Source: Novakomyces olei (lineage: Eukaryota). From it: 64,000 bases of DNA. Both the position numbers and the translations under genes were made by a program. The DNA lies in assembly GCA_016906335.1 (NCBI GenBank), contig JADEYG010000003.1, positions 1,302,001 through 1,366,000 of the forward strand. The letters are read 5' to 3'. Numbering within the stretch: position 1 is the stretch's first letter; every line of letters begins with the position of its first letter. Of the stretch, positions 47,919 to 64,000 are shown piece by piece. Below the pieces are notes generated by a model that did no database searches, had not been told where the DNA came from, and saw nothing but the letters and a program-made list of their open reading frames with translations.

Positions 47919-48265
47919 TGTTATAACTGGAAGTAACTCACTGTTATAACTCTTTAGATTAATTGAATCTACTCTTAAACTATGGAAAACCTTGTCCTTT
48001 TATAGACTTCAAGGCTCAGCTCTTATCTCAGAGATAGGATCAAGACTTTCCTATCAATTAGTAATCAGATAGGATCAGAAGTAACCGATCAATTAGTAAT
48101 CACCTTATCATTGATAGGTTACAGATACCCGATCAGTGGCGTGATTTAATGATTAGTAATTAAATATTCCTCCAAATCGGTTAAATTCCGTATTTGGAGT
48201 GAATTAATTTAATTTAATTATGTCATTTTAAATTTAAATTTTACTATCTACACTATGGCCTAACA
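47919..48265 (-). repeat. Element A 3' LTR
   Basis: Direct repeat of 60076-60422; preceded on the minus strand by purine tract GTGGGGGAGGA. Confidence 0.95.
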
Positions 48266-48528
48266 TCCTCCCCCACTAATTCGAGATGTGTCGAATTGTA
48301 GTTGTTCAGCAGGTTGGTTGAGTTAGCCAAGTGAGATTTAGGTTCCCATGTATCGTCTTCAGGTCCATAGCCTTCCCAGCGGATTCGGTATAATAGCTTA
48401 TACCCCTGTTTCGGTGTATTGGATTTTTTAGACCCTTTGAACCATCCATGGTCAACGATTTGTTGGATCAAATATAATTCTGTGTTGTCTTTGTAGCGTC
48501 GCAGAGCTTTAGGCTTAGGTTGTTCTCT
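48253..48528 (-). pseudogene. Element A integrase C-terminal chromodomain, separated by B insertion
   Basis: YRIRWEGYGPEDDTWEP. Removing B plus one TCTCT copy restores the frame (..NTREQPKPK..). Confidence 0.9.
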
Positions 48529-49159
48529 TGTAAGACGGTCCTTACAGCTACAATCGCTGGAGGCCGGCCGTGTATAGTTTAAATAAAGTAAAGGAATAAG
48601 AAAGACCAGGAAAGCAGAAAGCGATTACTGTAAAGCTTACCAGGAGTAATATAATGTATTACTCCCACTTTGAGATAATCAACCCGTGAAGGGCGAGAGG
48701 CCTTCACGGGCAACTATAAACTAAACTAAGTTGCGGAGGAGCGGATGCTCCTTCGCATTCTAAACTACTCTTCCCAAGCTAACTTATGCGAAGGTCGCAC
48801 AAGTTAGAGAGGGAAGCTCTCAGCCTAAACTAGTCTATGGAAATAACTATGAATGTTCTCGCGCTAGCGGAGTGCGAAGGGTCGCACTCGCTAGCGTGCG
48901 AGGATGAGAACGGGAAGCGAGGTCCGTGCACATTGTGCATGGAGCCCCTCGCTCCCGTGGGCCAAGCTGGCTTAGTGCGCGTACCTACATGCACACTAAG
49001 ACAACTTCTACGTCCCAAGACCATCGCGTTACGCGCCGACTGGTCTTGGGCCGCGTTGGCGAAGCTTGCGACGCGCGGACATCCCAAGTCCGACTACAGG
49101 CGTCGCCCCTCGCTTCCCAACGCGGTTGTCAGGAACTCGTCAAGGCGAGGATCATGACA
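48529..49159 (-). repeat. Element B 3' LTR
   Basis: TGTAAG...ATGACA; direct repeat at +6003. Confidence 0.95.
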
Positions 49160-49743
49160 GTATCCCCCCCTCCCTTGGGCGAGGTCCCCGCGCCCGCAAA
49201 ACATAAAATATCCCAAAACAATAGTAAGGCGAAAATAAAAACAACAGACTTCCCAGCTTTCAATATAATAAGGCACTCCAAGCATAAAAAATTGCAACTC
49301 TTCCATAGTCTCGTTCCAATGAAATAGCATGGGTAAATCAACTCAATCAAATAAATGTTCGCATTGCTTTGCGTAAGGAAAGAAAATTCAAATGCGAGCA
49401 CGAACACATGTAGACCATACTGTCTTTCAACTGCGGACCAAGTCGTATCTCTGCTCGGTGTTCTCATTGCTCGTCCGTATAAAGCGTGTATGTCGTGCGA
49501 TAAGATAAATAATAGTCGCGTTCGTTTTGTCAACGCCGTGAATAATTAAAGCGGTGTTAGCTTCAGTTTAATAATTTTTTTTTTGCATGATTTTCAAAAA
49601 CGTTTTTTCCAAATAGCGATAAATAACTAGTGCGAATTGTGTATTATATCGCAGTCGTAAACAAAAATCAAGAGTTGAGTCTCGCGATTGCGTAAGATTA
49701 CGTGAGTTGAATGACGTAACCTGTATCGCGATTAACGTAAACA

Positions 49744-52700
49744 TCATAGCTTCGGCTTAGCCGGGTGTAATCTGTGAAATTCTTTCACTAAATCGTCGCA
49801 ATTTGTCAAATTGCCTGCCGGCTCCCAAGTGCGATTAGCACTATCGTATCCCTTCCAGTGTACGAAGTATTCCAATTTGTTTCTTCGCTTCCTTGAGTCC
49901 AACACTTCCTCTACCTCCCACTCTGGTGTATTCTCAATTATTATTGGTGGTGGTGGTGCTGTCTGCTGTCGCACAATCGTAGACGTAGACTTGTACGATT
50001 CCAATAAAGAAGCATGGAATACTGGGTGTATTCTCATCGTGTTCGGTAAATCCAACTTGTATGCACGTAAACCGATACGTTCCAAGATTGCAAAGGGTCC
50101 AATCTTCCTGTAATCCAACTTGTCGCTTGGCCTAGTGGTACTGATGTTCTTTCTCACTAGCCATACTTTCTGACCGACTTCAAAATTCTTGTCGACACGG
50201 TGCGTATTAGCAAACCGTGCTTGATCGCTAATGGCGTGCTTGATTTCGATCTGTAAAAGGCGATGTAGCGTTCGCAAGAAATCAATCCGATTGTCCGCCG
50301 ATGGACACTGCCGTGCTGTTGCTATCGTAAAACGGCATTTGGGGTGATACCCATATAAAGCGTAACTAGGGGTCGCTTTTATTGATGATTGCTCAGTATT
50401 GTTATATGCGAACTGTGCAAAAGGTAGCAAGTTTACCCAATTCGTTTGTTGGTAATTGCTGTAAATTCTCAAATATTGCTCGAGGCTCTGATTAAGCCTT
50501 TCCGTTGTCCATCGCTCTGGGGATGGTACGCAGTTGATAACCTTTGCTTGATATCACAATGTGCGAGTAAATGCTTTGTAAAATGTGATACGAAAACTGA
50601 TCCACGATCTGAGATAATTTCTTCTGGCAGTCCAAAGTTAGCAAATACTCTGTGAGCGTATAGCAATGCTAGTTCTTTCGCGCTCATGGTCTCGCATATT
50701 GGTACAAAGATGCCTATCTTCGTAAAGCGACATACTATAACCCAAATTGAGTCGTAGTCTTTGCCTGTGATGACATCTCTTGACACCGGGAGCTTCACAA
50801 TGAAGTCCATAGCAATGCTTTCCCAAGGCTTTGTAGGCACTCGCAACGAATGTAGTAGACCATAAGGAGCATGACGCGATGGTTTACTTCGTGCGCAAGT
50901 GTCGCATGAGTCCACATAGTTAAATACGTCCTTCCGCATCCTAGGCCAGTAGTAATTTCGTGTCACAAGCTCTAGCGTCTTAGCCTGTCCGGGGTGACCT
51001 GAAGTCTGCGAATCATGACATTCTTGCATGATTGATAATCGCAAATCGTTGTCTCTGGGTATGTAAATCAAACCCGAGAACATTAACAGACCTTCCTTGT
51101 CTATTGTATAGTTCTCCAAATGAGCAGCACGAGGCTTGCTCTTTAACTCCTCAATAATATTTTTGCAAATGCTGTCCTTCTCGTAGCATTTCTTAATATC
51201 CTGTGCCAGCGTTTTGTTGTCCTCAATCGCAAACACAAATTGCGATTTGTCCAAAAGCACCATTGTTCGTTCTGGCTTTTCCTCCTCTTCGCTGCTAACG
51301 TAATCGCTTCTTCGCGATAAGGAGTCAGCCTTGTGGTTAAACTTTCCCGCACGATACACGATCACAAAATCGTAAGACGCAAGTAACTGCGACCAGCGCA
51401 TTTGCCGTCTATTCAGGACACGCGCGGTCCAAAAGTACACAAGATTGCGATGATCCGTGTATATCGTGGTTTTGTGAAGGGGACTCTCCAAGTATACCCT
51501 CCATTCCCGAAGACATACAACAATAGCTAATAGCTCCTTGTCGTGAATGTCGTAGTTCGTCTCTGCGCTTGTCATCTTGCGCGAGTAAAATGCGATTGGT
51601 CTCGTGTCGCCGTTTTCATCCTTTTGCGAAAGGATCCCGCCTATCGCAAAATCTGAGGCGTCCGTTTCCAAGAAGCTCGGCTTTTGTGGATCAAAGTGCA
51701 CAAGAATAGGTGCGCCTAAGAATGCATCCTTCAACGCATTGAATGACTCCCTGCATTCGTCGCTAAACACGAACTTTGTATCCTTCTTTAAAAGCCGGGT
51801 AAGAGGTACCGTAATCTTGCTGTAGTTGGCGATGAATCTTCGGTAATAGTTCGCCAGTCCCAGGAACGACATAACCTCCTTAACATTCTTTGGCTCGGGC
51901 CATGTTTCAATCGATTTGACCTTCGTATTTTCCATCGACACACCTTTCGTTGAAATCACGAAGCCAAGAAACTCCGTTGTGTCGGTATGGAATTCGCATT
52001 TCTCCAATTTGACAAATAAATTTGCCTTGCGAAGTCTCTCCAATACTCCGCGCACGTGCTCCACGTGTTCTTCCTCTGTATTTGAGTAAATCAGTATATC
52101 GTCCAAGTAAACGACAACATATCGATCCAGGCAATCTCGCAAAGTGTCGTTGGCGAGTGCTTGAAACGAAGCCGGGGCATTCGTAAGCCCAAACGGCATG
52201 ACTTGGTACTCGTAGTGGCCGTACCTCGTACGAAAGGCCGTTTTCCATTCGTCGCCTTTTCGTATCCTAACCAAATTATATGCACCGCGAAGATCCAATC
52301 GCGTAAAAATAGTTGCTTGGCGAATGCGATCTAGAAGTTCGGATATAAGCGGTAATGCATATCTGTTTTTGACAGTGATTGCGTTCAGACCGCGATAGTC
52401 AACGCATAATCTAAGCGATCCATCTTTCTTTTTGACAAATAAGATCGGCGCCCCCGCGGGCGACGACGACGGTCGTATAAAACCTTTAGCGAGGTTTTCC
52501 TTGATATAATCTCTCAGCGTTTGCAATTCGCGTTCGGCGAGCGGGTAGATCGGACCAAAAGGCGGCTTTGCATTTTCGGCCAAGGGTATCGCATGATCCC
52601 AAGGTTGATGTTTCGGCAAAACGTCCGCGTTCTTCTTCTCAAATAGGTCGCGATATCCCTCGTAGAACCCAGGCAATGTAACTCGAGGCTTGATATCTTG

Positions 52701-53290
52701 CTCGTCCGTTGCGTACACACATAAAATACCTGATTCTCCATTACGAGCCAATCTTGCAAATTCGGTTGCGCTGACTTGCATGGATTCGGATAATGTACTG
52801 CACTTCAAACAGTTCGCCAACAGTAGTTCGACTTAAACTCGACGTTTGCGCGACTCCATCCGATCGTAGGCTCATGCTTGTCCAACCATGGCTTGCCCAA
52901 GATAGCATCGTATCCACGAAGAGGTATGACATTGAAGGTCATCCTTTCTCGATGTTCGCCAATTGATATATCCATCTCGCTGGTGTGAAAGCGAATACCT
53001 CCTGACTTGATTGTCCTTCCATCAACGACTCTGATGGGCTCGGTCTCGCTCTTCTCCGTAAGCTTAATAAAAGCATGCGATGCGAGTTTCTCGCTGATAA
53101 AATTAGAGGTAGCTCCTGAGTCAATCAGGGCTCTCGCGTTCAACTCTCCATCCTCTGTCTTGACTTTCACGACGACAGTCAGATGCTTTGCTTTGTCCGG
53201 TTCCGTAAAAACTGTCATAACTTCTGGTGGCCTAAATTGTTGTTTGCCCAGATCAGGCCTTTTCATTGGACCTGGGCGTTCGCTTTTCCC
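49744..53290 (-). CDS. Element B Pol (PR-RT-RH-IN-chromodomain), -1 frameshift from gag; two 1-bp deletions (~52820, ~50503)
   Basis: ALIDSGAT, LCVDYRGLN, MPFGLTNAP, YLDDI, TDAS, HHCC, SDRG, GPF and chromodomain YFVHWKGYDSANRTWEP. Confidence 0.92.
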
Positions 53291-54195
53291 AAATCGGAAA
53301 ATTCGTGCGTGAATGCAGCGACGTGTTGCTGATTGTACGTCTTCTTCTTCTGCTTGCATTCTTTTGCTCGATGACCCACGCGTCCACAGTTAAAGCATTT
53401 GATGTTGCTTTTGCGATGGTTGTTATCCTCCTTTTCCAAACTAATCGCGTCCACATCCATAGGAGTAAAACTTGTACTCGCGTTTGCAGCCGGGCGGTTG
53501 TTGGAATATTTCACGGAACCGCGGCTTGCACTCTCGATGTGCCTGTCGGATATTCTTCCATCCACGCGAACTGAAATCTCAATCATTTCATTCAAAGTGC
53601 GGGGTCTGTCCATCCTGGAAAGCTCATCCTTGATGCGATCCTTCAGCCCCTGATAATACATGAACGTCAGCGCACTGTCATTGAAATCCAAATACGAAGC
53701 AATTCTTTGAAAAATGCTCGCATAAGATGCTGCTGATCCACGTTGTCTCAAGGCGGCTAACTCTCTTTGCGCCTGACTCACCCTGTCGACTTTGCCGAAA
53801 TTCGCGGCCAACGCTTCGCAAAAGGCTTCAAAAGTAGGTACTACCGAAGCAAAGTCGTTGTTGCGAAGGTGTGGTTCGAACCACGCAAATGCGGCGTCCC
53901 GCAAATACGAAGCTGCGAACAAAACCTTCGAACGCTCGTCGCGAAACTCGTGCGGTTTCAACATGATGTAAAGGCGAAGCTGCGCCAAAAAATTCTCGAC
54001 CATTCTGCGGTCCCCACGAAACGCGTCGGGCTTCATCACCGCTGGTCCGTCACTCGTCGGAGCTCTCTTAGCTCGCGAACCGATCTCCTGGGTCAGATGC
54101 GCAATGTGCGATCGCCCTTTCTCGTTCTCTGCCTTCAACTCGGCAATCTGAGTTTGCAGGGATTGCAAAAAGGTGTTGAGTTCCTCTTGCGACAT
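53263..54195 (-). CDS. Element B Gag
   Basis: Retrotrans_gag-like motifs (KVLFAASYLRDAAFAWF, LRQRGSAASY, YYQGLKD) and CCHC CFNCGRVGHRAKEC. Confidence 0.93.
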   Translation of the reverse strand: MSQEELNTFLQSLQTQIAELKAENEKGRSHIAHLTQEIGSRAKRAPTSDGPAVMKPDAFRGDRRMVENFLAQLRLYIMLKPHEFRDERSKVLFAASYLRDAAFAWFEPHLRNNDFASVVPTFEAFCEALAANFGKVDRVSQAQRELAALRQRGSAASYASIFQRIASYLDFNDSALTFMYYQGLKDRIKDELSRMDRPRTLNEMIEISVRVDGRISDRHIESASRGSVKYSNNRPAANASTSFTPMDVDAISLEKEDNNHRKSNIKCFNCGRVGHRAKECKQKKKTYNQQHVAAFTHEFSDLGKANAQVQ

Positions 54196-54531
54196 CTTGT
54201 CCCTCGTACCGCAAAACTCGTAATCGTAATCGTTCTTCCAGAACCGTTCTTCGTAAATTGTTCACTCAATCGTCGACTATCCAAGCCGATACTCAATAAC
54301 TCAAAATAACTGTGTTTCACCGGAACACTCGATAACTCAAAATTCTCAAACTCGAATCCACGTCCTTCACTCGACGCTTTAACCGTTTTAACTTCCGTAA
54401 AAATCCGTAAAAATAAGTACCGAACCGCGTCTTTGACTCGACGTCCGAAACTCTCTCGAATCCGAAGGAAATAAAACACAAACAATTCCAAAAAACTTCA
54501 AACTTCAACGACCGGGACGGGTTGATTATAG

Positions 54532-55162
54532 TGTAAGACGGTCCTTACAGCTACAATCGCTGGAGGCCGGCCGTGTATAGTTTAAATAAAGTAAAGGAAT
54601 AAGAAAGACCAGGAAAGCAGAAAGCGATTACTGTAAAGCTTACCAGGAGTAATATAATGTATTACTCCCACTTTGAGATAATCAACCCGTGAAGGGCGAG
54701 AGGCCTTCACGGGCAACTATAAACTAAACTAAGTTGCGGAGGAGCGGATGCTCCTTCGCATTCTAAACTACTCTTCCCAAGCTAACTTATGCGAAGGTCG
54801 CACAAGTTAGAGAGGGAAGCTCTCAGCCTAAACTAGTCTATGGAAATAACTATGAATGTTCTCGCGCTAGCGGAGTGCGAAGGGTCGCACTCGCTAGCGT
54901 GCGAGGATGAGAACGGGAAGCGAGGTCCGTGCACATTGTGCATGGAGCCCCTCGCTCCCGTGGGCCAAGCTGGCTTAGTGCGCGTACCTACATGCACACT
55001 AAGACAACTTCTACGTCCCAAGACCATCGCGTTACGCGCCGACTGGTCTTGGGCCGCGTTGGCGAAGCTTGCGACGCGCGGACATCCCAAGTCCGACTAC
55101 AGGCGTCGCCCCTCGCTTCCCAACGCGGTTGTCAGGAACTCGTCAAGGCGAGGATCATGACA
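54532..55162 (-). repeat. Element B 5' LTR
   Basis: Direct repeat of 48529-49159. Confidence 0.95.
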
Positions 55163-55262
55163 CGAAGCTTGCGACGCGCGGACATCCCAAGTCCGACTAC
55201 AGGCGTCGCCCCTCGCTTCCCAACGCGGTTGTCAGGAACTCGTCAAGGCGAGGATCATGACA

Positions 55263-56584
55263 TCTCTGGTGTTGTGACTGTTCATTGGATGATGTTTCTT
55301 TAATTGAGAAATGTGAACAACGGGATGATATTTTATTGATGTTGGTAGTTCCAATTCATATGAAACAGGACTGATTTTTTGAATAATTTTGAATGGACCA
55401 ATGTATTTTAATTGTAATTTTCGTGTGAGAACATCGTGGAATAGCTCCGGTATTTCTCGTATGTTGGCTGTGCTTAAATAAGCCAGGTCATTAACATTAT
55501 ATTCAACATTTATTCGCTTTTTATCCGCATAGATTTTTGATAAATCATGTGCTGTTCTGATAGCATCTTGACAAAGAATTTTGTTGGCCTCCAGAGTGTT
55601 TATAAAAGAGGAAGTATCTTTGTTCGGTGTTTCGGGCATTGATAAGTCAGTAAGACTACGTGGAATGTAGCCAAGATCCGCCTCAAAGGGTGTCATTGAT
55701 ATGGCGGAGTGTTGGCTTGAAGAGTAAAAGAATTCGGCAAACGATAATAATGTGTGCCAGCTGAAGTTCTTTTTATTGGCATAAATGAAAAGACGAAGAT
55801 AGTCTTCCAATACACGATTTGTGCGTTCGGTTTGACCGTTGGACTGTGGGTGATAGCTTGATGATGGCTTCAAATTGATTTGAAGAGTTTTTGTAAGTGT
55901 CTGCCAAAATTCAGACATAAATCTTACATCTCTGTCACTTATTATTGCAGTTGGTAAGCCGTGTAGACAGAAATATCTTTCCAAAAATAGCTGTGCAGTT
56001 CCTTGTGCTGTTATAGTTGTGTGCGTGGGCCAGAAATGAGCTCTTTTGGTTAGACGATCAACTATGCAAATTATAGCATCAAACTTTCGAGTCCCCGAAG
56101 CTGGTAGTCCAGTGATAAAGTCCATGCCTATTGTTTGCCATCGATTACTCGGTATATCGAGTTCTTGCAATAGTCCCATTGGCTTTTGAGGTATTATTTT
56201 GCTTTTAGCGCACGTTTCACATGATCTGACATATTCATTTATTTCTTTTGCCATGCCTGGCCAGTAGTATTTGCGGCCTACGCCTGCTATTGTTTTCTTT
56301 ATACCTCCATGCCCTCCTTGGTAGGTGTCATGTGATTCTCTTATTATGATGTTTGTGAAATCTGTTGGTAGGCAGATTCGATCATCGTATTGGAGATGTA
56401 TTATACCGTCTTGGATGTAGTAGCGCGATTTGATTTTTACGCTTTCGTTGTCTGTGAAACTGTCTGGATTTTTCAAAATAGTGAGTATTTTGGACCAATG
56501 TCTGTCCTTTTCGTAGGCCAACTCAAATTTTAAATTATTCTGGGGCGAAATTTGTACGGAAATTGCACCTACATCAGATGTTTT
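55263..56584 (-). pseudogene. Element A integrase, in frame with pol after a single TGA, cut by element B
   Basis: HHCC (H..GGH...C..C), MDFITGLP, SDRD, HPQSNGQTER, GPF motif. Confidence 0.9.
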
Positions 56585-59278
56585 TCAGGGTGTTCTTGAA
56601 AGTAGATCCGCCAAGACATTTTCAGTTCCGGGAACATGAATAATATTTATATCGAACTCATTTAAAAAATCCATCCATCTAAGGTGTCTTCGTGAAAGCA
56701 TAACATTTTTAGAGTAAAGGAGGCGACTCAGAGCTTGGTTGTCTGTCAAACAATTGACTTGGTAACCTCGAGCATATATTTCAAAATGATCAAGAGCTCG
56801 TATGCATGCAAGATATTCAAGTTCATGTACAGGATAATGTGATTCAGCTATCCCTAATTTTTTCGACGTGAAGCCTATTACTCTGCATTTTCTCCAGTCT
56901 TGTCCTTGTCCTAGCCATCCACCTGTACCAACTAGTGAAGCATCTATTCCCATGAATAGCTTTTCTGTACCATTATTCAGGGGTTCAGGGTCAAACGGTG
57001 AAAGTACTATGTCGTGCTGAACTGCTTTCTTGATTTTATCAAAGCCTTTTTGTTTTGTTTCGTCCCAAGAAAAGTCCTTCATCTCAGTGAATGTTGAAAT
57101 GTGAGAGGATAAGTTTGGTATAAACGTTGAAACCCAATTCAGCATTCCAACTAATCTTTGTACTTGCTTAATATTCTTTGGTGGTTCCAGTCGCAATATG
57201 GAGTTTTTTGATTTATCAGTCATTTTGATTCCTTCATCACTGATTTGTCGTCCCAGCACAACAAAGTTCTTGCAAAACGGAAATGTTTTGGTTGGACTCG
57301 CGTATAGTTCCCACTTTGACATAATACAAAAAACTAGCACCAAATGGTCCAAATGTGCTTGGACATCATCGTCGTATATTATTATGTCATCGACATAGAC
57401 TGTCATCCATATTCCAATGTAAGGTCTGAAGAGCTCCTCCATAAGTTGTTGCTGTATAGCAGTGGAATTACGATCTCCTTGAGGCATGACGTTCCACTGA
57501 TATATCCCAAATGGTGTCCAGAATGCCGTGTAGTGTTCTTGTCCGGGTTGTATTCTTGATTGAAAGAAAGCGTCCTTCAAATCAATCTTAGTTCTGTATT
57601 TTGCTCGTGCAATGTCTTGTACAACTATGTCAATACGTGGTACTTGAATGTAGAAACGCTTCATGTTTGCATTGCGAGGTCGAGCATCATTAACAAATCT
57701 CAAATATTTAATTATTTCTTTAGGATCTGTTAGCTTGTTAACCATTTCTTTGTCTTTGGGAATAGGAAACAGTATTGCACTAGGTTCTTCGCTAGAGATT
57801 GAGATCATCTTTGCTTTTAATAGCTCATCAATCTTTACTTTCAGAGGCAACATAAGCTTTTTGCTTGGGTACCACTTTTTTATGTTATACCTTTTTTCTG
57901 GATCAATTGGCTCATATGTAGCAACCACAGGTCTCATTATAGGCAACTTGCTTGGAGGATCCTTGATCAAAGTTTGATCAAACTTGTCTTGAAGTATCTG
58001 CAGTACTTTTTCTGGGTCAACCAAGTCCTCATTTGTAACTTGTTGGACTTCAATTCTCTTGTTGTCATCGATTGTTATTGAGCTGACTACAGGAAGTACT
58101 TCTGGCTTGACAAACCTTCTTTCATTTGCATCTTCCTGCCATTGTATATGTCGTTTGCGAGTGTTCACAATTGCCCCAAGCTTACTCAGTGTTCCCATGC
58201 CAATCAATAGATCAGAAGTTCTGAGTCTTGCAACGGCGCAATTTAACTCGCTGCCTTTGAACATGACTTTGGCCATATATCTGCTCACAGTTTTCGATCC
58301 TTGAAAGGCCATTTGAATTTTGTGGTCACTTTCTTTGTATGTTGGTCGGTGAACATTGCAAAAGTTTGAGTCAATAACATCAATATCACTTCCAGTATCA
58401 ATCAGGACCTGACATTTGATTTCTTTATCATTTATTTCCACAGGTAGATTTACTAGAAATTGTTGGTTTGTGTTTTGGACAGCAGAACAATTGTAATCAA
58501 GTTTGATTTCTTTGCTAACTATTTCAGAATCATCTTTAAGAGCACTGATGGTTGATTGATTCTTTCGTTTAAAGCACTGCTCGTACGTGTGCCCAGTGCG
58601 GCGACAAAAGGTACATCTTGTTCTGAGGGCTGGCTTCTCTGGTTCTTTCTTCTCAGAAGTAGTTGCCTTTGCTTCAGTTTGTTGGTTGCCTTGTTTAGGA
58701 TTCATGCTCCCTATGTATGGTCTTGTTGCAGTAAAATCGTAGCCTGTTGCCACATCAACCACACTTTGCCATTTCCATTTCGTCATTCCTGTGTTGTTTC
58801 CCGACTGATTTCCAAATGCGCTTCTCAAAGATCCCATTATTTGAGGCTTTGTTCTCTCATTTAGCCCATGTATGAATTGTTGAATTAAGATGGCTTCGTT
58901 AACTATTTCTAGTTCCATTGATTTCAATTTAAGCTGCGTGGCATATTGGCTAATGCTTTTTGTTCCTTGAGCGAAGGTAACAAACTTGCTGTAAGCGCGT
59001 GGTAAATAGTCGTTGGGTACAATGCTTCGCTCCAGATGATCAAGCATCTGATCTGTCGTTACACTAGCATTGTCCCTGAGTTCTTCAGCATAGATTGTAG
59101 CGTTCGATTCGAGGAACATGCTAATTAAGTCTATATCTGAAATCCCGGTAACACTGCCTCCTGCTTTGGCATATGTCAGCCATTTAACCACAGAGCTTCT
59201 CCATGATTGGAACTCTCTATGGGTCATTGAATGACCATTCAGCTTTGCTGGTTCAGGCAGCTTGATTTTGAAGTCCAT
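56585..59278 (-). CDS. Element A Gag-PR-RT-RNaseH polyprotein (single frame)
   Basis: CCHC knuckle CTFCRRTGHTYEQC, LIDTGS protease, YVDDI RT, IDAS/ELE/TDN/DLLSR RNase H. Confidence 0.93.
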   Translation of the reverse strand: MDFKIKLPEPAKLNGHSMTHREFQSWRSSVVKWLTYAKAGGSVTGISDIDLISMFLESNATIYAEELRDNASVTTDQMLDHLERSIVPNDYLPRAYSKFVTFAQGTKSISQYATQLKLKSMELEIVNEAILIQQFIHGLNERTKPQIMGSLRSAFGNQSGNNTGMTKWKWQSVVDVATGYDFTATRPYIGSMNPKQGNQQTEAKATTSEKKEPEKPALRTRCTFCRRTGHTYEQCFKRKNQSTISALKDDSEIVSKEIKLDYNCSAVQNTNQQFLVNLPVEINDKEIKCQVLIDTGSDIDVIDSNFCNVHRPTYKESDHKIQMAFQGSKTVSRYMAKVMFKGSELNCAVARLRTSDLLIGMGTLSKLGAIVNTRKRHIQWQEDANERRFVKPEVLPVVSSITIDDNKRIEVQQVTNEDLVDPEKVLQILQDKFDQTLIKDPPSKLPIMRPVVATYEPIDPEKRYNIKKWYPSKKLMLPLKVKIDELLKAKMISISSEEPSAILFPIPKDKEMVNKLTDPKEIIKYLRFVNDARPRNANMKRFYIQVPRIDIVVQDIARAKYRTKIDLKDAFFQSRIQPGQEHYTAFWTPFGIYQWNVMPQGDRNSTAIQQQLMEELFRPYIGIWMTVYVDDIIIYDDDVQAHLDHLVLVFCIMSKWELYASPTKTFPFCKNFVVLGRQISDEGIKMTDKSKNSILRLEPPKNIKQVQRLVGMLNWVSTFIPNLSSHISTFTEMKDFSWDETKQKGFDKIKKAVQHDIVLSPFDPEPLNNGTEKLFMGIDASLVGTGGWLGQGQDWRKCRVIGFTSKKLGIAESHYPVHELEYLACIRALDHFEIYARGYQVNCLTDNQALSRLLYSKNVMLSRRHLRWMDFLNEFDINIIHVPGTENVLADLLSRTP

Positions 59279-59345
59279 ATTTAAAATATATTTTAATCAA
59301 TTTAAATTAAATTGATACAGAATTAAATATATTAAATATAAAAGA

Positions 59346-60099
59346 CTAATACAAAGTATTAAAAAACGCTGGTGATTGCTGTCCACTTTTCAAGTGCTCG
59401 TAGTAATCCTTCTCAACTTTGTTTGGATCTTCTCCTCTGTAAAGACGAATTTTGAATCTGTCCTCAACAATGTTGTCCAGAAGATATTTTGTTTTCTTCC
59501 TGTTGTGCAGTTCTTGAATGCGATTGGCCACCAATTTGTTGTATGTTTCCTCGTAGCGTAGATTTGCCGCCGCTTTGCTTGTCCAGTGCGCTTGTTTTCG
59601 AAAAACTTCTTCCTCTGATAGAGGCAAGCGAGGAGTTGTAGCAGAAATAGTGGCCAGAGAAACTGAAGGAACTGTGGGAGCTGGGTAAGGACCAAGTCTC
59701 TGCGCTGGTGGAGGAGGTTTTCTGAGCACCTTTGCCGCAATAGCAGCAATTGACTCAGGCTCCTTGGAAATTCGACCGTTGCGTTTACGCTCTTTGAATG
59801 CCTGCGATCGGCGAGCGTTTCTTTCTTTCCTCTTATTCAATTGATGAATAGAGGTATTTTTCTCTGAATGGGCACTCTGGTCGGTAAGTCCAGACACAGA
59901 GGTTTTATCCTTATCCTTGGGTGTATTGCTTCGGCGGATAGAGCCAGCCGAGACAACAACCTTTGGATCGGTTTTTGCCTGCTTCAAGAGATTTGCAAAT
60001 GTCTCAGAGTAGACAATGCGAGGCCGTCGGCTGTCTCCTGACGGATTCACTGACAATGTTAGCAGTGAAAAAAGTTGTTATAACTGGAAGTAACTCACT
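59346..60099 (-). CDS. Element A accessory ORF0 (234 aa; ATG formed by splicing intron 60098-60050)
   Basis: Met-free open frame 60056-59346. Donor GTGAGT at 60098, branch TGCTAAC, acceptor CAG ending at 60050. The junction A|TG gives MNPSGDSRR in frame. Confidence 0.7.
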
Positions 60100-60422
60100 G
60101 TTATAACTCTTTAGATTAATTGAATCTACTCTTAAACTATGGAAAACCTTGTCCTTTTATAGACTTCAAGGCTCAGCTCTTATCTCAGAGATAGGATCAA
60201 GACTTTCCTATCAATTAGTAATCAGATAGGATCAGAAGTAACCGATCAATTAGTAATCACCTTATCATTGATAGGTTACAGATACCCGATCAGTGGCGTG
60301 ATTTAATGATTAGTAATTAAATATTCCTCCAAATCGGTTAAATTCCGTATTTGGAGTGAATTAATTTAATTTAATTATGTCATTTTAAATTTAAATTTTA
60401 CTATCTACACTATGGCCTAACA
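60076..60422 (-). repeat. Element A 5' LTR
   Basis: Direct repeat of 47919-48265; TATAAAAG on the minus strand at ~60154-60161. Confidence 0.95.
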
Positions 60423-60689
60423 ACAAGTGTAGAAATTTAATTTGGCTTGTTGTAGAGAATAGTGTTGTATCTCCTTTTAGCTACTTTTCTAAGTCTACTG
60501 ACGCTGTACTATATAGTTTCTTTGGTTCCAGCCACCGAGTTACACTTTGGTAGCGCAAGCCTCTTTGTACTCAGTTCCAGCCACTCCAGCCACTCCAGCC
60601 ACTCCAGCCACTCCAGCCACTCCTCCTCTTTTCTGTAGCCAGCCTTCCTGTTCTTTTTCTGTGACGTCCAAGCTTGACATATTCCTATA
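60423..60689 (-). repeat. Probable copia C 3' LTR (5' part; remainder at ~47838-47913 beyond element A)
   Basis: Starts TATAGGAATA right after the PPT; contains five GGAGTGGCT 9-mers and a TATA-like CTATATAG. No second copy in the window. Confidence 0.55.
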
Positions 60690-62472
60690 CTCCCTCTCAA
60701 GCTTGTTGTCGTCACTTTCACGTGTTTCGCCTTTAAGTATCTTTTGTTGTAGGTAGTTAAATATTTTTTTTGCACAAGGGCTTTGTAAGTATATCCGCCA
60801 CTTGTTCTTTTGTGGAAACATAGTCCATAATAATTCTGCCCTTCTCAGTAAGGTCCCGTAAAAACATGAAGCGCACATCCAGGTGTTTTAAGCGTCTCAT
60901 AGGGCTCGCTTTGTGTGATACGTAAATTGCGCTGTTATTGTCCGAGCACACTCTTAGGGGGTGGTCCAGGTTAAGTATTTTTTTGACCAGATTTTTTATT
61001 CCCAGTCCCGTTACAATTGCAGAGCACGCACTGACATATTCTGCTTCGCATGTTGATAATGCAATAATTTTTTGTTTTGAGGAACTCCAGTGAATTAGCG
61101 ATGTTCCTAAAAACATTGCCATTCCTGATGTGGAGTGTCTGTCAGATGCTTCGCTAGCGTAATCGGCGTCACAGTAAATCGTAAGGGTGCAAGGGACAGT
61201 GTTGCTTTGGTATTCGATTCCAAGTTCCTTCGTGTCTCTTAAGTAAGTTGTAATTTGTTTAATTAGTTCCAGACATTCGGTAGTTGGGTTTTCTTGAAAT
61301 CTTGCAGCGTGGGATACGGCAAATGCTATGTCTGGTCTTGTGCATCTGCTTATCCATAGTAGCATTCCAACGCATTTTCGGTATTCCGTCTGCTCAATCG
61401 GTTTTCCATTTAACACAACGTAATTTTTAATTGGCGTCTTTTTTCTTGGTGTATCTTGACAGTTAATTTCTTTTACTGCCTTTGAAATGGCAGCTTTTTG
61501 GGTAATTTTCATGTTGCCGATTTTTCTGTCATAACTGAATTCCATACCAAGGAATTGGTGAATTTGTCCAAGGTCATTAATTTTAAAAGCCTGCCCGAGT
61601 TTTGTTTTCGTGTTATCGATTTCGTACATTTCTTCACCAATAATAATTATATCGTCAACATAAATTAACAAAAACGAATTTCGTTTTGCATTGTGTAAAA
61701 TGCAGTTTTCTGTTGTGGATTCCAAAAATCCTAAAGCTGATAATGTTGTAAATAATTTTTTGTACCAGCATCTCGGGGCCTGCTTTAGTCCATAAAGTGA
61801 CCGTAGTAGTTTGCAAACTCTTCCGGTTCCATCATCAAAGCCTTCGGGCTGTCTCATAAAGACACATTCTTCCAGGTCTCCATTTAGAAACGCCGTTGTT
61901 ACGTCCATTTGATGGATATGCCATTTCTTTGAAACGGCAAAGGCAAGAAGTGTGCGTAGTGATTCAAGGGCCATAGTTGGTGCGTAAGTTGCCTGATAAT
62001 CAATACCCTCGCGTTGCGAAAATCCCTTTGCAACCAGCCTTGCTCTATATCGTTCAACTTCTCCTTGATTATTGGCTTTCGCTTTAAAAACCCACCGGTT
62101 TCCAATTATATCAGCTCCCTCTGGAGCATGTACCAATTTCCACGCATTGTTTTCCTTCATTGCATTTAATTCAGTCTCCATAGCCTCTTCCCATTCCCGA
62201 GCGTGCAAACTGTTGCGCGCCTGCTTTGTATTGTTTGGCTCTATAATTTCATTTATTGCCACATGCGCTCTATCATAAATTCCTGGAGCATGACGAATTC
62301 TGGTTGAGCGTCTGATTCCGTCGTTTGAAATGGTTGTTCCTAATTCTTGTGTATCATTCTGCTGCTGTGTTTCGTGATTGTCCTGATTTTCGTCCTCTAG
62401 TATATCGTCATTAACATTAATTGAGTCAGTCGTGTCTTGAAAAAATTGCTCCGAGTCTTTTGACGTGCCATC
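60690..62472 (-). mobile_element. Element C: Ty1/copia RT-RNaseH 3' portion, truncated by element D
   Basis: RYRARLVAKGFSQREGIDY, HQMDVTTAFLNG, SLYGLKQAPR, YVDD, YCDAD, STCEAEY, ADILTKP; PPT GAGAGGGAG at 60698-60690. Confidence 0.93.
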
Positions 62473-64000
62473 TGATGAGGTGATACATTCTATACATCGG
62501 AACAAAGTTTTGAAGATACTCTAGAAAATATGTGTCATATCAATATGACATAATTCCGTTTTCATCGGAGATAATCCGTTCGATTGCGGATTATTTCCAA
62601 TTCCGGAATTTTAGTTAGCCACTTTGTGGCTTAGACAGTCTTTTCCGTAGTTGTTTCTATTTTTAGTTATAGTTAGTTAGTTCCAGCAAGGATAAAAGGA
62701 GGCCCGTTCGCACTTTTATCCGACGCTGATTATCGACCGTGTTGACCGTGTAAACCGTTTTAAGTACTATTACCTTCCATTTGGCTTCCCACCACAGTTG
62801 CCGTGAAAGCAACACAGCCGTACCCAAACCAAACAAAGAAAAACACAACAGTATAATCAGCCCACGTTGTGGTGCCGAGCCGTTCGTCATGGAAGGTGTC
62901 GACATGAATCGTCTGAACCAATTTGTTGAGGAAACAACAGCGAAGTTACAGCTACTGGAGCATGAGAACATGATGCTGAAGGTCAAATTGGAAAACGATC
63001 AGGAGAGTCGACATGCGACGTTCAACCGGGAGCCCAAGTTAGCCCCGCCACCTTTGTTTTTTGGCGAGAGAGCTAAGGCTCGTGAATTTATCACCCAAGT
63101 GAAAATGATAACCGACGCACTACCCTCGAGATACGGATCGGACCGCCAGAAGGTCACGTTTGCAGCAACCTATTTGCGAGGAACCGCGTTCAGGTGGATT
63201 GAGCCTCACATCCTAGGGGAAAACGAAGGAATACTCAACGATTTTGAGACGTTTTGTGATTCATTCCTACAGATGTTTGGTGATCGAGATATTAGAAAGC
63301 AGGCGCAGAAGCAAATTCGCAATCTGAAGCAGTCTGGAGCTGTTGCTCAGTACGCAGCCGAGTTTGACAGACTCAGAGCGAACTTTAGCTGGAACGAAGA
63401 AGCGTTGATTTCGCAGTACTACGAGGGCCTTAGCGACAGGCTTAAGGACGAATTGGCAAGAACGACAGAGCCTAGTACCTTGCGAGAGATGATCGAGATG
63501 ACGATCAGTATTGATAATCGTCTATTTGAGAGACGTAAAGAGAGACAGAGAACAAGTTACGAACCGAGAACGTATTATGAGCCGAGATTTACGGGCAGAA
63601 GTAACCAGACGACTGCACCGATGGAAATTGATTTGGCGGTTGCCGGTGCCAGAGGAGCAGGCAGACCCGCAAGAGAGTACAAGACGAATGACAGAGAGCA
63701 CAAGACGAATTACAGAGACGCGAGAGACGCGAGAGAAAGAGAGAGAAGTCACGACAACAGAAACGTACAGTGTTATAATTGCCAGAAGAAAGGGCATATT
63801 GCAAAAGAGTGCAAAGAAAAGAGAATTCCGTTTGTAAGCCGTCAAGCTGCAATGACGACGAACGATTTGAGCGACGACTCGGGAAAAGATTTCGCCTAGA
63901 GAAAGAAGTGGTTTCTCTAGGACAAGCTGAATTAAAAGCCACTGAAAGACGACGAGATACTGGAGTGAGACATTTGGAGACGGACGTCCAAATAAATGGG
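62473..64000 (+). mobile_element. Element D: Ty3/gypsy retrotransposon 5' part (LTR ~62473-62850, gag, start of pol)
   Basis: LTR ends CAACA at 62850, followed by a PBS complementary to an LTR-internal 9-mer; gag and a frameshift signal follow. The LTR left edge is uncertain. Confidence 0.85.
62889..63899 (+). CDS. Element D Gag
   Basis: KVTFAATYLRGTAFRW, LKQSGAVAQY, YYEGLSD, APMEID, CYNCQKKGHIAKEC. Confidence 0.92.
   Translation: MEGVDMNRLNQFVEETTAKLQLLEHENMMLKVKLENDQESRHATFNREPKLAPPPLFFGERAKAREFITQVKMITDALPSRYGSDRQKVTFAATYLRGTAFRWIEPHILGENEGILNDFETFCDSFLQMFGDRDIRKQAQKQIRNLKQSGAVAQYAAEFDRLRANFSWNEEALISQYYEGLSDRLKDELARTTEPSTLREMIEMTISIDNRLFERRKERQRTSYEPRTYYEPRFTGRSNQTTAPMEIDLAVAGARGAGRPAREYKTNDREHKTNYRDARDARERERSHDNRNVQCYNCQKKGHIAKECKEKRIPFVSRQAAMTTNDLSDDSGKDFA

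Follow-up and report, generated by a model that had tools for sequence, protein, structure and literature searches.

We analyzed a stretch of 64,000 nucleotides (nt) from the genome of Novakomyces olei (GenBank assembly GCA_016906335.1, contig JADEYG010000003.1, positions 1,302,001 to 1,366,000), which we refer to as the window and in which positions are counted from the first letter. The minus strand of the window carries a young long terminal repeat (LTR) retrotransposon of the Ty3/gypsy type (Metaviridae), here called element A. In front of its gag gene the element has 989 nt without an ATG in any of the three frames, and inside this leader lies an open reading frame (ORF), ORF0, of 243 codons, none of which could serve as a conventional start. 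A candidate intron of 49 nt at the 5' end of ORF0 would, once removed, create an ATG across the splice junction and in the ORF0 frame. The explanation that we favor, and that we hold to be probable though far from certain, is that the unspliced RNA is scanned through to gag and that the spliced RNA translates ORF0 from the AUG made at the junction.

Results

Absence of ATG from the leader of element A

The original prediction, made from the sequence of this window, stated that the minus strand has no ATG in any frame between the gag start codon and the TATA box of the LTR. We find this to be correct for the 875 nt in question (59279-60153), and the gap is even longer than claimed. It is bounded on the plus strand by a CAT at 59276, which is the gag ATG (A at 59278), and by another at 60266 (an ATG with its A at 60268); consequently, the ATG-free gap begins ~107 nt before the TATAAAAG box is reached. 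No gap on either strand of the window is longer, the runners-up measuring 687, 566 and 553 nt. The two strands contain 987 and 998 ATGs at a mean spacing of ~64.5 nt and, calculated from these counts and this spacing, a gap of at least 990 nt is expected ~4e-4 times per window.

Chance or base composition would be the simplest explanation of the gap, and it is consistent with the absence of GGG from the same stretch and with the rarity of TAG and GTA there. We consider it highly improbable, however, not only on account of the expected frequency just given but also in view of the comparison with shuffled sequences that had been proposed along with the original prediction. Mononucleotide shuffles of the 875 nt contain 14.4 ATGs on average and dinucleotide shuffles 9.8; the minimum is 2 in both cases, and none of the 25,000 shuffles (20,000 and 5,000, respectively) has zero. 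Moreover, the depletion is strand-specific, with 10 CATs on the very strand that has no ATG, and it ends at the promoter region on one side and at the gag ATG on the other. Because CAT is present 10 times while ATG is absent, a symmetric mutation bias (for example, repeat-induced point mutation) is excluded as well; the two LTRs are, in addition, identical. For comparison, the ATG density of gag-pol corresponds to 23.7 per 875 nt, and just downstream of the leader there are 10 ATGs within 234 nt (59045-59278).

It had also been predicted that the gag ATG is the first AUG of the unspliced RNA. This holds only if transcription starts downstream of 60268, and the start presumably lies ~30 nt downstream of the TATAAAAG box, a position that we infer from the TATA box alone. 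The ATGs nearest to the stretch in U3 (the part of the LTR that precedes the transcribed repeat R) open frames of only 3 and 2 codons, namely 60268-60257 (ATG ATA AGG TGA) and 60383-60375 (ATG ACA TAA).

An ATG-free leader per se is ordinary in this window, as it is found in all three of its gag-bearing LTR elements: 989 nt in element A, ~565 nt in a second Ty3/gypsy element nested inside it (element B), and 344 nt in front of a third gag at 62889 on the plus strand. In element B the 565 ATG-free nt extend to the gag ATG at 54195, and CAT is rare there as well (2 occurrences). Only leader length and the embedded gene set element A apart.

An open reading frame without ATG

The open length of ORF0 is matched by none of 5,000 dinucleotide shuffles of the leader (maximum 221 codons). 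The codon log-likelihood is positive only in the ORF0 frame, where it amounts to +0.11 per codon with a codon model derived from element A itself and to +0.20 per codon with a model derived from 9 host ORFs, compared to values of -0.15 to -0.25 in the remaining frames. ORF0 is overlapped by another frame of 148 codons without stops (59390-59836, minus strand), which scores negatively for codon usage, matches no family and is probably a by-product of the composition of ORF0.

The composition of ORF0 further indicates how ATG is avoided inside the frame. There is no methionine among its 243 residues, compared to 2.6% in gag-pol and 1.8% in host proteins; cysteine is absent too, and the single tryptophan is preceded by CAC. 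Codons for asparagine, aspartate, histidine and tyrosine, which could contribute the first two letters of an ATG when a codon starting with G comes next, stand in that position in 4 of 36 cases in ORF0 and in 71 of 230 cases in pol (binomial 0.005). At all four of these ORF0 sites, which encode asparagine or tyrosine and where a final T would make an ATG, the codon ends in C, while 52 of the 71 comparable sites in pol have a codon ending in T, giving a probability of 0.27^4 = 0.005 for the ORF0 pattern. Codon shuffles of ORF0, which have no methionine by construction, contain 4.8 out-of-frame ATGs on average, and only 57 of 20,000 contain none. That the frame has been kept open while all ATGs were purged is hard to explain unless it is both translated and scanned through.

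Homologs of ORF0 were sought in several collections. None was found among 1,401 candidate proteins sharing words with it, and an exhaustive phmmer search of 1.84 billion representative proteins gave 0 matches; there was no Pfam family at E <= 0.1 or E <= 10, no PHROG match and no usable ESM Atlas match, and the best match among PDB sequences had E = 0.29. Gene callers overlook ORFs that have no ATG, and this may explain why the representative proteins include no relative of ORF0. A single-sequence AlphaFold model has a mean pLDDT (predicted local distance difference test) of 56.8, too low for a fold search; in this low-confidence model, residues 72-99 form a basic helix and residues 155-213 a long one. 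We rejected a basic leucine zipper (bZIP) transcription factor as an identity for ORF0: its basic stretch (residues ~80-100) presumably resembles fungal bZIP motifs, but neither a Pfam family at E <= 10 nor a PDB match below the E-value given above was found.

Copies of the element in a second organism (run X2) differ from ORF0 at 12 sites. Five of these variants are synonymous and seven nonsynonymous, and 0 of the 12 make a stop codon or an ATG. Since 144 of the 2,625 possible substitutions create an ATG, 0.66 new ATGs would be expected among the 12 by chance, which is too few to test avoidance. The segment 59869-60275, which includes the splice signals discussed below, is without variants in the X2 copies. 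One X2 contig matches gag exactly up to the gag ATG (59278) and continues into unrelated sequence, meaning that some copy has a different leader, and two other X2 contigs break off inside ORF0 (at 59783 and 59834).

Alternatively, ORF0 may be unexpressed, in which case the leader would be a long 5' untranslated region under the usual selection against upstream AUGs and the frame would be a relic of a captured or decayed coding sequence. The ATG-free leaders of all three gag-bearing elements of the window agree with this explanation, as do the lack of a homolog or family, the low-confidence fold, and a ratio of nonsynonymous to synonymous substitution rates (dN/dS) that is not significantly below 1. 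We find it quite unlikely because the purging of ~10-20 ATGs takes time and an unselected frame should gain stops, yet 243 codons are open, a length that the shuffles do not attain. The frame-specific codon signal and the avoidance of ATG by codon choice inside the frame also speak for a translated ORF0, and an ATG at the splice junction would have to be pure coincidence.

A candidate intron that would create a start codon

The candidate intron at the 5' end of ORF0 (Table 1) has its acceptor CAG 9 nt after the branch A, and its donor, GTGAGT at 60098, is the sole donor-like site in the leader. Splicing would produce the junction ...AACA/TGAAT..., in which the A at 60099 and the TG at 60049-60048 form an ATG that is in the ORF0 frame and has an A at -3. 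The predicted product of this ORF has 234 amino acids, and the leader spliced in silico contains two ATGs only, the junction ATG and the gag ATG. The introns of the PAK-kinase gene in the window share these signals (GTGAGT or GTAAGT, CTAAT, CAG). The general pattern GTRAGT...CTRAY...YAG has 15 matches in 128 kb (both strands), and an ATG spans the junction in just one of the 15, the leader intron. We estimate at ~1e-4 the probability that such an intron ends by coincidence in the first 30 nt of ORF0 and yields an in-frame junction ATG. The intron covers the last 23 nt of the LTR together with the expected position of the primer-binding site.

The arrangement could also work with a single RNA and no splicing, if ORF0 started at a near-cognate codon (for example GUG at 60050, CUG at 60065 or UUG at 60056) and most ribosomes leaked on to gag, as in rice tungro bacilliform virus (RTBV). 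An AUG-free ORF followed by a strong gag AUG fits such a mechanism equally well, the near-cognate codons at the 5' end of ORF0 are in frame and have hairpins just downstream, and RTBV offers a precedent with an AUU start and ~900 nt without AUG (PMC5902531). We regard leaky initiation of this type as unlikely, given that the earliest near-cognate codons are in poor context (0 or 1 of two favorable positions) and that it leaves unexplained why a GTGAGT/CTAAC/CAG intron should turn that same GUG into an in-frame AUG, at the coincidence estimated above.

Near the other end of ORF0, TTAAT (59362) is followed by the TAG that is also the ORF0 stop (59346-59362, minus strand), a possible alternative acceptor for the donor at 60098. 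Use of the donor at 60098 with this TAG (at 59346) would excise ORF0 entirely and leave gag near the cap.

If gag were translated from this or another spliced RNA, from the RNA of an internal promoter or through internal entry of ribosomes, the absence of ATG from the leader would have to serve another purpose. The position of the TAG acceptor exactly at the ORF0 stop, preceded by a weak branch-like sequence, is compatible with such a route, and so is the strong structure predicted for the leader (see below). We judge it very unlikely nonetheless: TTAAT differs from the branch consensus of the host introns, and none of these routes needs an ATG-free ORF0, so that the main observation is left unexplained. 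A joining of ORF0 to gag was rejected both by frameshift, the frames not overlapping and having stops between them, and by splicing, as neither nearby acceptor yields an in-frame product when joined to the GTATTA site close to the end of ORF0 (judged by eye).

Predicted folding of the leader and the primer site

The leader (59279-60130) is predicted to fold with -226 kcal/mol compared to -193 kcal/mol in shuffled sequences (z = -4.9), and 0 of 20 shuffles are as stable; a piece of gag of equal length has z = -1.45. This structure may reflect packaging or dimerization signals. Strong structure is typical of retroviral leaders. Two hairpins are predicted within 60036-60112 of the minus strand (z = -3.3 and -2.4). 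The stem of the first is formed by the self-complementary palindrome GUUAUAAC and holds the candidate 5' splice site in its loop, while the second (UUCACUG/CAGUGAA) has the branch point in its loop and the acceptor in its 3' arm. Based on these predictions, the hairpins could tune the spliced share of the RNA. A search of 59000-60500 against Rfam identified no family, with one chance-level match to a small nucleolar RNA (E = 0.71).

No TGG-type tRNA primer-binding site follows the 5' LTR (60063-60075, minus strand), and the window has no tRNA genes for comparison. Self-priming of the Tf1 type is unconvincing, as inspection by eye gives only an 8-bp pairing, with one G:U, of 60113-60106 with 60076-60069.

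Anatomy of element A and its surroundings

The LTRs of element A are 347 bp each and 100% identical, end in TG...CA, and are flanked on both sides by a 5-bp target duplication, ACAAG. The flank with the polypurine tract reads TCCTCCCCCACT on the plus strand, which is AGTGGGGGAGGA in the sense of the element. Pfam domains occur in the order Retrotrans_gag (residues 51-141, numbered from the gag ATG at 59278), gag-asp_proteas (weak), RVT_1, RT_RNaseH, Integrase_H2C2, rve and SH3_Tf2-1. An in-frame TGA (56585-56587) separates the RNase H part from the integrase part, and a sense codon takes its place in every X2 contig that covers the site. The gag-protease part has no protein relatives at E <= 1e-5, and the best matches of the reverse transcriptase (RT)-RNase H part are only 33-35% identical. 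Among metagenome and viral contigs, neither a protein search nor a DNA pattern from the LTR end detected a related locus.

Table 1. Coordinates of element A, its leader and the nested element in the window
Feature	Position	Strand	Basis or remark
Element A, complete Ty3/gypsy element with nested element inside	47919..60422	-	LTRs, target duplication, domain order
5' LTR of element A (U3-R-U5)	60076..60422	-	Exact 347-nt match to 47919-48265
3' LTR of element A	47919..48265	-	Adjoined upstream by polypurine tract 48266-48277
TATAAAAG box, presumed promoter in LTR	60154..60161	-	Read directly; 78 nt before LTR end
ATG-free stretch, 989 nt, all three frames	59279..60267	-	U3 to base before gag ATG
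Candidate intron, 49 nt	60050..60098	-	GTGAGT 60098-60093, CTAAC 60062-60058, CAG 60052-60050
ORF0, 243 stop-free codons (60077-59349) plus TAG stop, no ATG	59346..60077	-	ORF list, codon statistics
AT-rich spacer from ORF0 stop to gag ATG, 67 nt, ATG-free	59279..59345	-	Read directly
gag ATG	59276..59278	-	Context A at -3, G at +4
gag-protease-RT-RNase H frame, closed by in-frame TGA	56585..59278	-	ORF list, Pfam
Integrase part (Integrase_H2C2, rve, SH3_Tf2-1), same frame, truncated by nested element	55232..56584	-	Pfam
Nested element B, Ty3/gypsy, identical 631-bp LTRs	48529..55262	-	Inserted into element A integrase region

In element B a tandem duplication affects the last 100 nt of the LTR (55063-55162 and 55163-55262). 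At least four LTR elements are clustered between 47.9 and 64 kb: elements A and B, a copia RT (60757-62520) and a gypsy gag (62889-63899). Just outside the 5' LTR of element A, in the copia-type fragment, there are ~5 copies of a tandem 9-nt repeat, GTGGCTGGA (60580-60625, minus strand). The host genes of the window encode a proteasome ATPase, a PAK kinase, DNA ligase IV and Rpn7; their introns follow the pattern GTRAGT...CTRAY...YAG, which is indicative of a fungus-like eukaryote.

Discussion

The depletion of ATG and its boundaries, the open frame with its codon pattern, the consensus of the splice signals and the in-frame ATG at the junction can all be read from the sequence, and from them we infer a transcription start, splicing, scanning and translation of ORF0. 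According to this proposal, the ATG-free stretch would serve a young Ty3/gypsy element as the 5' leader of its full-length (genomic) RNA, and ORF0 would be a real, lineage-restricted accessory gene inside that leader, with selection having purged ATG in all three frames, both within ORF0 and in the sequence flanking it. On the unspliced RNA, ribosomal subunits loaded at the cap would meet their first start codon at the gag AUG (59278), which is in strong context. ORF0 would be made from a second RNA, in which loss of the 49-nt intron (60098-60050) joins A to UG; the resulting AUG would be in frame with ORF0 and lie ~30 nt from the presumed cap. As the end of U5 and the place of the primer-binding site both fall within the intron, this spliced RNA would be an mRNA only and not a template for reverse transcription.

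Several observations weigh against the proposal. This copy of element A is defective despite its identical LTRs, with both an in-frame stop and a nested insertion. The strong structure predicted for the leader does not favor easy scanning and could reflect constraints at the level of the RNA instead, and removal of the primer-binding site by the intron is suggested by position only. The intron would be unusually short for this host, in which two verified introns are ~154 and 181 nt long and other plausible ones 130-250 nt. In three raw-read RNA-seq runs carrying the same species label, 2, 0 and 3 reads fall partly on the LTR and none contains a joint; the sequenced strain may lack the element, and these runs speak neither for nor against expression. 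At the synonymous level the signal of ATG avoidance is weak on its own because zero ATG is reached in 1,916 of 20,000 synonymous permutations that keep the ORF0 protein fixed (mean 1.6 ATGs) and because the weaker test of the C-ending choice, Fisher's test within ORF0, gives 0.08. ORF0 is without relatives in every collection searched, and hence conservation lends no support. The dN/dS calculated from the X2 variants is ~0.43 in ORF0 and not significant (P = 0.13), compared to 0.27 (P = 0.004) in gag-pol, and 10 of the 12 ORF0 variants come from a single contig, in a proline-rich linker.

The original prediction had gone beyond the missing ATGs to propose that selection removed them to allow scanning, that splicing acts as a switch, and that ORF0 is a maintained gene. 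We regard this interpretation as supported in part, with strong backing from the statistics and the anatomy of the sequence. The first proposal agrees with a depletion that is beyond chance, strand-specific and bounded by the promoter region and the gag ATG. The second fits a canonical candidate intron whose removal would make an in-frame ATG for ORF0. As for the third, the 243-codon frame, the codon score that is positive in this frame only and three routes of ATG avoidance argue for maintenance, which the dN/dS leaves without statistical significance.

A further and more speculative extension, to which we assign little probability, is that element A follows the logic of complex retroviruses, in that the ORF0 product acts back on the intron-retaining genomic RNA through its export, translation or packaging, as Rev or the CERV protein of Cer1 would. 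The product would then consist of an arginine/lysine-rich helix, a proline-rich linker and a long C-terminal helix, and the ratio of spliced to unspliced RNA would switch between synthesis of the regulator on the one hand and synthesis of Gag-Pol and replication on the other.

If the proposal of a scanned unspliced RNA and a spliced ORF0 mRNA is true, it represents a compact route to two proteins from one promoter: the upstream gene is written without AUG, so that the genomic RNA still translates gag, and a 49-nt splice supplies the missing start codon. Retroelement leaders with ATG-free open frames and a junction-made ATG could form a hidden class of accessory genes.

Comparison with known systems

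The literature searched, which left most subscription journals outside, describes no LTR retrotransposon of a fungus in which a gene precedes gag or splicing makes an AUG. The ingredients are known singly, as AUG-free ORFs in RTBV and as spliced accessory mRNAs in retroviruses and Cer1, and we did not find their combination described.

An ATG split by an intron, with translation dependent on splicing, is reported for rare cellular genes and for engineered splicing reporters (PMC3668367 and the TOGA2 preprint). These are not mobile, and they have no downstream ORF that needs an AUG-free unspliced form. In murine leukemia virus, glyco-Gag starts at an upstream non-AUG codon in the leader and most ribosomes proceed to the gag AUG. 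Glyco-Gag is an in-frame N-terminal extension of Gag, whereas ORF0 is in a different frame from gag and ends 67 nt before it. Fungal Ty3/gypsy elements of the Tf1/Tf2 kind resemble element A in that one frame extends from Gag to integrase and the integrase has an SH3 domain of the Tf2-1 type; in element A, no TGG-type site follows the LTR. They are set apart by the low identity of the RT-RNase H matches and the unmatched gag-protease part of element A. Tf1 primes itself, and we know of no ORF upstream of gag in Tf1.

RTBV (Tungrovirus, Caulimoviridae) is similar in being reverse-transcribing, in having AUG-free ORFs ahead of a main ORF, and in obtaining a start codon via splicing. Ribosomes scan ~900 nt through its ORFs I and II, which are free of internal AUGs; an AUU on the unspliced RNA, reached by ribosome shunting, starts ORF I, and a splice fuses an upstream ORF of the leader to ORF IV (PMC5902531). 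RTBV is, however, a plant pararetrovirus without LTRs or integrase, and its splice fuses an existing leader ORF to a distal ORF, while element A would assemble A and UG across the junction. The AUG-free ORF of element A, seen here in sequence form, is located upstream of gag in an LTR retrotransposon of fungal type.

Cer1, a Ty3/gypsy element of C. elegans, and the retroviruses produce Gag-Pol from unspliced RNA, which is also their genome, and accessory proteins from spliced RNA (PMC10309623). They have a splice donor in or near the leader, as element A would, and CERV of Cer1 is another accessory protein without outside homologs (PMC10309623). CERV and the accessory and env genes of retroviruses lie inside gag-pol or after it and use an AUG that is already present. 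In element A, by contrast, the accessory ORF is upstream of gag, the candidate intron is only 49 nt long, and the AUG would be absent before splicing.

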